From a virus (lineage: Duplodnaviria > Heunggongvirae > Uroviricota > Caudoviricetes): a DNA stretch of 42,485 nucleotides. The position numbers and the translations under genes are program-made. Below, piece after piece: positions 34,340 to 35,473 of this stretch. The stretch is taken from IMG/VR virus record IMGVR_UViG_2667527777_000006; one strand, 5' to 3'. Each line of letters begins with the position of its first letter. Position 1 is the first letter of the stretch. The notes beneath the pieces are model-generated. The model was not told the origin of the DNA. It was given only the letters and a program-made list of their open reading frames with translations, and did no database searches.

Positions 34340-34351
34340 TCAATGTTTATG

Positions 34352-34375
34352 AACCTGCTTCGGCAGGTTTTTTTA
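34352..34375 (+). terminator. Rho-independent terminator after cI
   Basis: aacctgc-ttcg-gcaggtt followed by a T-run. Confidence 0.7.
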
Positions 34376-34378
34376 TAC

Positions 34379-34407
34379 TTGACAATGTACCCATGAGATA
34401 CATAATG
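34379..34407 (+). promoter_or_regulatory. Sigma70-type promoter (pL-like) with repeated TGTACCC motifs
   Basis: TTGACA at 34379-34384, 16-17 nt spacer, CATAAT/ATAATG; two copies of aTGTACCCa overlap the promoter. Confidence 0.5.
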
Positions 34408-34573
34408 TACCCAAGAGAAACAACGAACAGGCAGGACGCCCACGAAGTAGCCGCCTGGGGCATATAAAGTCTAGGGTGATTCGTTAGCAACAAAAAAGCG
34501 CCCTACAGGACGCTTAGCTCTTTAACAATCTGGTCCCCATCAACAAGTAACTGATAACTTGAGGAGGTGTGAA

Positions 34574-34780
34574 ATGCACAAAACAGAACCCAAAATCGTC
34601 GCGCCCGGATACACAAATGAGGAAATTTACGAGTGGATGGCAAAGAAGCTGGCAGCTATAAACCAGCTTCGTGAAGTGCTGTCTTATCGACAGGAAACAA
34701 TAGACTCCTTAAAAAAACTGGATCAGGAAATCACGGTTTTATCACAGGATGTTACTTTAGATATTGTGCAGACAAATTAG
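34574..34780 (+). CDS. Small hypothetical protein (68 aa), coiled-coil-like
   Basis: Strong SD GAGGAGG 6 nt upstream of the ATG; translation MHKTEPKIVAPGYTNEEIYEWMAKKLAAINQLREVLSYRQETIDSLKKLDQEITVLSQDVTLDIVQTN. Confidence 0.55.
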   Translation: MHKTEPKIVAPGYTNEEIYEWMAKKLAAINQLREVLSYRQETIDSLKKLDQEITVLSQDVTLDIVQTN

Positions 34781-35186
34781 GATCCCATTCATTTTCGTCA
34801 AAATCATCAAAGTGATGAATTTGTGATCTCCAGTCTCGATAATCTAAAAATTTCTGGGCGGTTACGCTTATTTTATCAAGTGTGAGTTCATCCTGAATTG
34901 AAAGAAGAAGTTCATCAAATTTCATCTCATTAATCTGTTTTGGCATCCAGTGATGCTTCATCAGAATAAGGTGAACCAGAGCCTTTTTCCCATTCAACTG
35001 ATTATAGGGAGTGCCGAATTTCTTCCGGTGCTCATGTAAGACAAGGTCCAGAAGAGTAAGTAATGTTGCCCTTGATTCCACTTTGCTTATTTCGACTGAT
35101 GACACTACCCCACTGATTTCAATGCCCCGATACTTTCCAACATTTTCACAGTGGGATTTGTACAGCGTGTAGATATTACCGGACAT
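34752..35186 (-). CDS. Hypothetical protein (144 aa), oriented opposite to the cI/early-left operon
   Basis: AT-rich ORF; its 3' end overlaps the small plus-strand ORF by about 29 nt; no family recognised. Confidence 0.5.
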   Translation of the reverse strand: MSGNIYTLYKSHCENVGKYRGIEISGVVSSVEISKVESRATLLTLLDLVLHEHRKKFGTPYNQLNGKKALVHLILMKHHWMPKQINEMKFDELLLSIQDELTLDKISVTAQKFLDYRDWRSQIHHFDDFDENEWDPNLSAQYLK

Positions 35187-35473
35187 TTCTTTTCCTTTTG
35201 CGTTGTTGGGGATAACCAGATTAACCGAATCCTTGTTGTTGGGAAATAACCAGGTCCACCTCGCCTGATGTGGATAAAAGCAGGCACATAACAGCTAAGT
35301 ATTTTTAACCAGAGAGAATCCTTAGCGTTGTGGTGAATGCGGCTCAGCGCACGCGGGTTAAGGTTGAGGCTGACAGTCGACCTTCTGTGGATACCCACCC
35401 GTCTGGTGTGCAACCTTCGCCAGGCACCGGGAGGCACCCGGCACCACAACTTTATGCTGTGTGTAGTCCTGGA

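Follow-up and report, generated by a model that had tools for sequence, protein, structure and literature searches.

A covarying leader RNA and a cassette with a convergent gene pair downstream of the repressor gene of an SfIV-like prophage

The virus record IMGVR_UViG_2667527777_000006 (Caudoviricetes) comprises 42,485 nucleotides (nt) of DNA, which are referred to here in their entirety as the window, and contains, downstream of its cI-type repressor gene, a structured leader RNA and a pair of convergent genes that are the subject of this analysis. The repressor gene is followed by an intrinsic terminator, a promoter overlapped by two operators, and a leader of about 161 nt that extends from an inferred transcription start site near position 34413 to the start codon, at 34574, of the gene for the 68-residue protein p68. 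The gene for the 144-residue protein p144 is located on the opposite strand and converges on the p68 gene, so that the 3′ ends of the two genes overlap by exactly 29 nt at positions 34752–34780. Similarity searches give 99.8% identity between the region and Shigella phage SfIV, and the locus of E. coli F9792 matches the region at the same level of 99.8%. The left part of the region is common to SfIV and SfV, and the similarity to SfV stops at position 34485. In RefSeq, one YmfK record (WP_000848748.1) annotates the repressor in both the F9792 locus and prophage e14 of E. coli K-12. Phages SfIV, SfV, and SfII have been reported to lack homologues of N, cII, and cIII, and ORF35 and ORF36 of SfIV have been listed as unique and of unknown function (PMC3851460). 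The open reading frame (ORF) of 68 codons is unannotated in the GenBank record of SfIV; however, it is called by RefSeq/PGAP. None of the ORFs of the window encodes an N protein that bears an arginine-rich motif, and none is matched by such a family in Pfam or PHROG. Because of this result and the published absence of N from SfIV, the phage is described here as an N-less lambdoid phage. In the best explanation, the region is the start of the early-left (PL) operon in a prophage of the SfIV/SfV/e14 type. The architecture of the locus is well supported and very probably correct, whereas the complete explanation, with the functions of its products included, is evenly poised between right and wrong, and the biological roles proposed below for p144 and p68 are tentative.

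The promoter has the top promoter score in the scanned region. The order of terminator, promoter, and leader recurs in the comparison sequence L118 and is annotated likewise in phage Ayreon, and the record of SfV annotates a terminator at the equivalent place. The motif TGTACC is present in 22 copies in the window compared to 13.2 expected, a number that was reached in none of 100 shuffles, and its copies cluster in the cro/cI intergenic region and on the promoter. The palindrome ATGTACC-N5-GGTACAT, which was derived from the OR sites, has seven matches with up to three mismatches, compared to 1.06 expected; three of them are in OR and two are on the promoter. Judged from these sequences, the TGTACCC motifs are cI operators and the promoter is PL with its OL sites, because its operators are the same as those in OR. 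According to the established logic of phage lambda, cI bound to the overlapping operators would keep PL off in a lysogen, and the promoter would fire on induction or infection. With PL repressed by cI, p68 is therefore an early lytic gene and not one expressed in the lysogen, and only p144 can be the lysogen gene of the pair. The original prediction, made from the letters of this DNA, had listed the terminator after cI, the near-consensus promoter with TTGACA and CATAAT hexamers, the repeated TGTACCC motifs, and the leader of about 160 nt, and all these observations are confirmed. Its interpretation is supported in part: the promoter was wrongly taken to be active in the lysogen, and a lysogen-expressed module is possible for p144 only. 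The region also holds more than had been seen, because the leader is not empty but contains an undescribed structured RNA, a hairpin, and an rrn-like boxA, and because the gene pair is part of a cassette system for reverse-oriented prophage cargo.

The first 75 nt or so of the PL transcript would fold into two helices, P1 and P2, around an invariant 25-nt core, with P1 beginning about 9 nt past the inferred transcription start site. An alignment of 96 distinct 79-nt versions of the leader RNA contains compensatory double changes in 10 of its 16 base pairs; for pair 40:57, the variants are GC (40), CG (32), UA (17), and AU (5). Altogether 96.6% of the alignment cells are paired, whereas shuffles reach 78.1%; the score for covariation is 0.466, in comparison with 0.118 for shuffled alignments and at most 0.10 for controls with slid partners. 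The support for the structure is evolutionary, because the thermodynamic stability of the window copy is unremarkable: its folding energy is no better than that of shuffled sequences (z = -0.54). The window copy also departs from the consensus at two positions that are conserved in at least 90% of the versions, and both properties of this copy weigh against a role of the RNA as an antiterminator.

The segment 34419–34487 is common to phages of differing immunity types and hosts according to similarity searches, and the exact core AGGCAGGACGCCCACGAAGTAGCCG is present in at least 120 IMG/VR contigs. Host genera of the leader RNA are Escherichia, Shigella, Salmonella, Klebsiella, Citrobacter, Yersinia, Pectobacterium, and Pantoea. 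In all annotated cases the RNA is positioned close to the 3′ side of a repressor gene or immunity region, beside a promoter, where the early-left operon starts, as in the phages SfV, ST64B, ZF40, YeP1, AH07, SEN34, PHB10, Eeyore, and mEp237. The classes of sequence on its 3′ side vary between phages, and the leader is independent of what follows it. A covariance model of the RNA recognizes only one copy in the window; a second copy on the PR side, which was sought with the same model, is absent. No feature is annotated over the leader RNA in the RefSeq records among the E. coli matches listed, and no Rfam model matches it, either at a permissive E-value in positions 33300–36100 or at gathering scores in the whole window. 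A description of the RNA was not found in the literature by its core sequence or under SfV antitermination, processive prophage antitermination, and small RNAs (sRNAs) of enterohemorrhagic E. coli prophages. As judged by alignment and covariance, the leader RNA is a widespread, undescribed, and strongly covarying structured RNA. It is present in 1843 of 5426 complete E. coli genomes (34%), and its description would improve the annotation of prophages whatever its function. The top match of the covariance model outside the family, located at positions 3384–3474 (-) of L137, has a score of 8.8 bits and an E-value of 0.58, which is not significant. Its position in this unrelated phage, on the 3′ side of a PL-like promoter and before the hairpin-boxA, is exactly analogous to that of the leader, and it may be a distant variant of the leader RNA.

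The leader RNA is followed by an AT-rich cassette of about 800 base pairs (bp) at positions 34488–35291, which has conserved ends and a variable interior in a comparison with L118 and L067. The GC content is 0.41 in the p68 gene and 0.39 in that of p144, compared to 0.50 in the window and 0.52 in the next 730 bp. The left-end hairpin of the cassette, which is boxB-like on the PL transcript, is kept in L118, L067, and L137. It is directly followed on the plus strand by AGCTCTTTAACAATCTGG and contributes to an arrangement in which a boxA consensus is found in a promoter-proximal leader with a hairpin before it, as in rrn-type boxA elements. The boxA-like sequence is the only match in the window to TGCTCTTTAACAA with at most one mismatch. 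Its position beside the hairpin is kept in L118, L067, and the otherwise unrelated L137, where both separate the promoter from the p68 homologue. The right end of the cassette is near-identical upstream of a 37%-identical homologue of p144 in L118 and of an unrelated gene for a protein with two transmembrane segments (2-TM) in L067. Most simply, it would be a shared 5′ control region of the reverse-oriented cargo. The direct repeats within it are kept upstream of the unrelated cargo genes in L067 and L118, and are candidates for activator sites, an element of the 5′ untranslated region, or a recombination site. A DnaA box with one mismatch is located at 35207–35215 (-) within the first direct repeat, and boxes with at most one mismatch number 22 in the window, compared to 9.2 expected.

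Table 1 Features of the repressor–early-left region, with positions in the window.
Feature	Position	Strand	Properties
OR operator sites	33580, 33613, 33630	.	Palindrome matches
cI-type repressor gene	33665..34339	+	Peptidase_S24, E 1.5e-26
Intrinsic terminator closing the cI transcript	34351..34370	+	8-bp stem, 4-nt loop, T-run; -11.6 kcal/mol
PL promoter	34379..34406	+	TTGACA (34379), 16 nt, CATAAT (34406); 11/12 consensus matches; transcription start site inferred near 34413
OL1 operator	34385..34403	.	1 mismatch; between -35 and -10
OL2 operator	34405..34423	.	3 mismatches; covers the transcription start site
Conserved 5′ leader RNA	34421..34487	+	67 nt; P1, invariant core, P2
Leader RNA P1	34422-34427 : 34480-34485	+	RNAalifold and explicit pair counting
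Leader RNA invariant 25-nt core AGGCAGGACGCCCACGAAGTAGCCG	34429-34453	+	Alignment
Leader RNA P2	34452-34458 : 34471-34478	+	RNAalifold and explicit pair counting
Left-end hairpin	34496..34515	-	Minus-strand terminator (34515-34496): 8-bp stem, then TTTTTTGTT; -11.5 kcal/mol
rrn-type boxA-like AGCTCTTTAACAA	34516-34528 (entry to 34530, +2 nt)	+	12/13 matches to TGCTCTTTAACAA
p68 gene, early, PL-transcribed	34574..34780	+	68 residues; Shine–Dalgarno sequence GAGGAGG 6 nt upstream of ATG; phrog_1744
p144 gene, reverse-oriented cargo	34752..35186	-	144 residues; NCBIfam NF033230; phrog_5286
Right end of cassette (5′ region of cargo gene)	35187..35291	-	About 100 bp, near-identical in L118 and L067
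Direct repeats GTTGTTGGGGATAACCAG and GTTGTTGGGAAATAACCAG	35202-35219, 35235-35253	-	18/19 bp, 33 bp apart
Small hairpin in right end of cassette	35255-35274	-
Perfect DnaA box TTATCCACA	35269-35277	-	Only perfect one in the 42.5-kb window; 83 nt upstream of p144 start
STnc100/PasD-like sRNA region	35297..35519	+	Rfam RF02076, full-length match, 38.4 bits (sub-threshold; gathering score 47), E 3.7e-6; terminal hairpin and U-run

The cargo inside the cassette is p68/p144, a 163–165-residue coiled-coil and zinc-ribbon-like protein, or a 150-residue 2-TM protein together with a small ORF, and the comparison counts four or more types of cargo. The same position on the 3′ side of the leader is occupied, outside this cassette, by orf33 in SfV and by ymfJ/ymfI in e14. 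In L075, the reverse-oriented gene directly after the leader encodes a homologue of SieB (PF14163, E 1.2e-21). The slot is variable among related phages, and its equivalence to that of sieB, which the original prediction had proposed, holds up. The cassette carries cargo that varies among phages and points against PL. With its swappable reverse-oriented genes and a SieB homologue in a related phage, it defines a hotspot for the search for new exclusion and defence genes of prophages.

Protein p144 matches the NCBIfam profile NF033230 (“ECs1072 family phage-associated protein”) over 141 of 142 positions with 157.8 bits and an E-value of 1.7e-46, where the curated cut-off for the whole-protein hidden Markov model score is 70 bits, and RefSeq gives the identical gene the same name. 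Residues 1–144 also match PHROG 5286 (E 1.5e-90), the function of which is annotated as unknown. The structure predicted by AlphaFold2 is all-helical with seven helices, with a predicted local distance difference test (pLDDT) score of 84 and a predicted template modelling score of 0.83. An exhaustive HMMER search of 1.84 billion representative proteins yielded 76 clusters of the family at 50% identity, and nearly all full-length members have 143–157 residues. The p144 gene is present in 422 of the 5426 complete E. coli genomes. Near-invariant positions of the family are limited to R54, H72, G66, and W134, and a few hydrophobic residues. HEPN (Rx4-6H) and HD motifs were sought by eye and are not conserved. 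The sole hint of the expression of a p144-type gene comes from ECs1072 itself, whose microarray signal varied with growth phase in uninduced O157 Sakai (PMC2241611). In L137, the same strand carries, immediately before the p144 homologue, a 341-residue ORF at 1380–2405 (+) that has a match to KAP-family P-loop NTPases (26 bits, cut-off 20).

Residues 1–68 of p68 match PHROG 1744 (E 4.8e-34), another family with its function annotated as unknown. For this protein, AlphaFold2 predicts that the N-terminus is unstructured and that residues 15–67 form one long helix (pLDDT 88.8). The protein is hydrophilic, and the single long helix is of an amphipathic type rather than that of a membrane peptide. 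Homologues with 26–36% identity retain an N-terminal motif with residues E5, P6, A10, E17, W21, M22, and K25, and 9 of the 15 variable sites of p68 are at codon position 3. Database entries that appear to be homologues with 58–79% identity are frameshifted assemblies and do not reflect true divergence.

Convergent pairs with overlapping 3′ ends, in which p68 is transcribed in the direction of the early operon, are found in four lineages, represented by the window, L118, L136, and L137, and the homologues are intact ORFs with 26–38% identity. In L118, the p144 and p68 homologues are 37% and 35% identical to those of the window, and the overlap has the identical length of 29 nt. The pair of L136 has 37% identity and that of L137 has 35% identity with a 32-nt overlap, and in both cases the flanking DNA is unrelated. 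Because the convergent overlap recurs across four lineages at such divergence, p68 and p144 are, by sequence comparison, a real two-gene module. This agrees with the original description of an AT-rich pair formed by a coiled-coil-like 68-residue ORF with a strong Shine–Dalgarno sequence and an opposite-strand ORF of 144 residues, with an overlap of about 29 nt. Both are real genes with PHROG families of their own and diverged intact homologues. Neither had been recognized at that time; structure prediction and database comparison assign p144 to the ECs1072 family, and find no match for it in PDB, BFVD, or PADLOC. No homology of either gene to N or another core early gene was matched.

The sole good minus-strand terminator on the 3′ side of p144, the left-end hairpin, lies beyond the start of p68, and therefore the p144 mRNA would be antisense to the whole p68 gene, including its ribosome binding site. 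Transcription from PL would in turn run antisense through all of p144. Because PL is controlled by cI and transcription is convergent, two mutually exclusive states are predicted: the lysogen would express p144 and not p68, and after induction p68 would be expressed and p144 shut down. The antisense coupling that had been suggested for the pair is thus structurally plausible, whereas the accompanying suggestion of a toxin-regulator pair fits neither type I nor type II toxin-antitoxin systems. The most likely role of p144, put forward tentatively, is that of a lysogen-expressed accessory protein of the exclusion or abortive-infection (Abi) kind. Protein p68 would be its early, PL-driven partner that neutralizes or replaces p144 during the lytic growth of the phage itself, following the logic of sieB/esc in phage P22. 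Ranade and Poteete reportedly described in 1993 that Esc, a second product of the P22 gene, protects the phage from its own SieB. The roles of p144 and p68 are proposed because of the position, orientation, AT-richness, and co-conservation of the genes, and because of the SieB homologue of L075 at the same position. The pair may consist of an effector made in the lysogen and an antidote made only from PL, with the switch between them enforced by convergent transcription, and provides a testable candidate with built-in on/off logic.

Several results weigh against this assignment. By sequence, profile, and fold, p144 has no similarity to defence, toxin, or exclusion proteins in PDB, BFVD, Pfam, or PADLOC. 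No Pfam family, SieB (PF14163) included, matches p144 at E ≤ 0.1 or any of 47 members of its family at E ≤ 1; p68 has no Pfam match at E ≤ 0.1, and none of the 5027 models of PADLOC-DB v2 matches p68, p144, or their homologues from L118 and L137. The variable, SieB-like position agrees with the suggestion of an exclusion or abortive-infection module, while family matches do not. A search for a sigma70 consensus promoter of p144 gave nothing in either the window or L118, and inspection by hand provided weak candidates only; for this reason, the expression of p144 in the lysogen can only be inferred. Furthermore, L004 contains a p144 homologue of 151 residues with 56% identity that has no p68 partner, and in L075 a 193-residue early-left protein, which is encoded beside SieB and is not accompanied by p144, begins with a p68-like domain.

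The separate occurrence of the two proteins in L004 and L075, together with the cassette of L067, which carries other cargo without any plus-strand ORF, could be explained if p68 and p144 were functionally unrelated. In that case p68 would be an ordinary early-left gene and p144 an independent moron, and their overlap would have no regulatory meaning. However, the pair recurs in four lineages at 26–38% identity, two of which (L136 and L137) have unrelated flanks, and the 29-nt overlap is the same in L118; a chance adjacency would not outlast such divergence, which makes independent neighbours unlikely. A functional link might also be of another kind, namely a toxin-antitoxin or addiction module that stabilizes the prophage, in which one product is toxic and is neutralized by its partner protein or by the antisense overlap. 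Convergent genes with overlapping 3′ ends are found in some type I systems, and the combination of a small protein and a larger partner encoded in AT-rich DNA of a prophage is in line with this explanation. It is nevertheless quite improbable, since the genes are on opposite strands under separate control with PL repressed by cI, and would not be co-expressed as type II systems require; p68 and p144 are not a co-directional, co-transcribed pair. Moreover, the predicted hydrophilic long helix of p68 differs from the small hydrophobic membrane toxins of type I systems, and no toxin or antitoxin family or fold was recognized for either protein in Pfam, NCBIfam, or PADLOC. There is only a slight chance that p68 acts as an antiterminator like N, with the upstream hairpin-boxA as its nut site, and that p144 is irrelevant cargo. 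The p68 gene is the first gene after PL, like N in lambda. The hairpin and the boxA with 12 of 13 matches are located 44–78 nt upstream of it in the window, and the same elements precede the p68 homologues of L118 and L137, at a distance of about 240 nt in the latter. By contrast, p68 lacks an arginine-rich motif, as its N-terminus is MHKTEPKIVAPGY, and it matches no antiterminator family. SfV, ST64B, and e14 have the same early-left operon and leader without p68, and L067 has the hairpin-boxA with other cargo and without p68.

The leader RNA itself would act in cis, either by altering the RNA polymerase that transcribes it or by shielding the long untranslated leader from Rho. A put-like antiterminator or anti-Rho role is possible rather than probable. 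It is suggested by the extreme 5′ position of the RNA on PL transcripts, its presence in phages without N, its independence of the sequence on its 3′ side, and the conservation of the core across genera. The covariance model, however, finds the leader RNA only once per genome, and canonical intrinsic terminators on the sense strand 3′ of the leader are not enriched (27 of 83 loci), with 0.40 terminators per 3 kb in the sense orientation compared to 1.05 in antisense. Both observations speak against an antiterminator, and a need to overcome intrinsic terminators is unsupported by this census. A serious alternative, itself somewhat short of an even chance, is that the leader RNA is not an antiterminator but a 5′ stabilizer, a docking site for a protein or sRNA, a processed sRNA, or a ribozyme on the PL transcript. 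The single copy per genome and the lack of an excess of canonical downstream terminators agree with this alternative, as do the STnc100/PasD-like sRNA genes downstream on the same transcript, and the invariant core is compatible with any specific ligand. On the other hand, the element is independent of the sequence that follows it, the classes of which differ, and no Rfam ribozyme or sRNA model matches it. It is also always located a few nucleotides from the transcription start site, like putL, and is found in phages reported to be N-less (PMC3851460).

The two halves of the most novel possible explanation are that the 67-nt leader is a new class of cis-acting RNA, which makes the polymerase resistant to termination or to Rho, and that p144 and p68 are a new two-component exclusion or Abi system; that both are true at once is rather unlikely. 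As a member of such a class, the leader may work like the put RNA of HK022, to which it is unrelated in sequence and fold, and may be used by many N-less temperate phages of Enterobacterales. If it acts on the elongation complex, the leader would raise the number of phage antiterminator families made of RNA alone to just two, and would explain the N-independent early-left expression of the common prophages of the SfV, e14, and ST64B type.

The STnc100-like region is located directly on the 3′ side of the cassette and is not part of the gene pair. Equivalent STnc100 matches follow the leader in SfV and in ST64B, in the latter at a distance of about 280 nt. STnc100 and PasD have been described as related prophage sRNAs (2026 preprint), and the segment 35297–35519 is probably a divergent relative of STnc100 and not a certified member. 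The GenBank record of SfIV places ORF35 (114 residues) and ORF34 (226 residues) at positions corresponding to 35105–35449 (-) and 35337–36017 (+) of the window, across the conserved non-coding end of the cassette and the STnc100-like RNA. The alternative call by PGAP at ORF34 is the 120-residue YfdP at window positions 35655–36017, and the long ORF34 and ORF35 calls are probably artefacts. In the early-left operon of L136, a CsrA-like ORF of 65 residues was noticed by eye at 2200–2397 (-). In the PR operons of SfV (L002 1895–2083 (-)) and ST64B (L007 245–433 (-)), a C4 antisense RNA (RF01695) is encoded beside an isrK-like RNA (RF01394), neither of which is present in the window at its gathering score. 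A tRNA gene (71.8 bits) is located close to the right end of the window at 39637–39709 (-).

The elements of the locus resemble several known systems. Like the put RNAs of HK022 and HK639, the leader is a structured RNA of about 70 nt that occupies the 5′ extremity of PL transcripts in an N-less lambdoid phage, and HK639 has only a putL-like RNA annotated and no putR. However, put RNAs consist of two long stem-loops, whereas the leader has a closing helix P1, a single-stranded invariant core, and P2. The covariance model has no match in the HK022 locus or in the whole genome of HK639, and homology to put was rejected, since the PL-nun region of HK022 and putL of HK639 resemble each other and not this leader. 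The hairpin followed by boxA AGCTCTTTAACAA, which is similar to TGCTCTTTAACAA, has the order of the boxB-boxA of rrn operons and is reminiscent of lambda nut sites; here, there is no N protein and no recognizable boxC, and the hairpin also serves to terminate transcription of the gene on the opposite strand. The STnc100-like region is matched by the STnc100/PasD family in its full length and adjoins the cassette, and differs from the family in its score below the Rfam gathering threshold. The locus of e14 has ymfJ/ymfI at the same position after the leader and the repressor annotated as YmfK, and its plus-strand ORF also converges on and overlaps a minus-strand ORF, by 63 nt. By contrast, the e14 proteins are unlike p68 and p144, e14 matches the window only as far as the leader, and its copy of the leader RNA (L138 2078–2157 (+), 73.8 bits) has an altered P2 loop and a 1-nt insertion in the otherwise invariant core. 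With its AT-rich, deviant base composition, a terminator of its own, variable presence between conserved flanks of similar phages, and probable expression from the prophage, the cassette is similar to morons as defined for HK97 and HK022. Unlike them, it is placed in the opposite orientation to the early operon and has conserved ends that are common to different cargos; no sigma70 consensus was recognized in its conserved upstream region of about 100 bp. Finally, p144 and p68 differ from SieB, RexA, and RexB in the absence of sequence, profile, or fold similarity, in the reverse orientation and convergent pairing of p144, and in being known here from genes alone. Nevertheless, they share with sieB (esc) of lambda and P22 and with rexAB of lambda the location on the PL side next to the immunity region, where prophage genes exclude or abort other phages, and the same position on the 3′ side of the leader is occupied in L075 by a true homologue of SieB.

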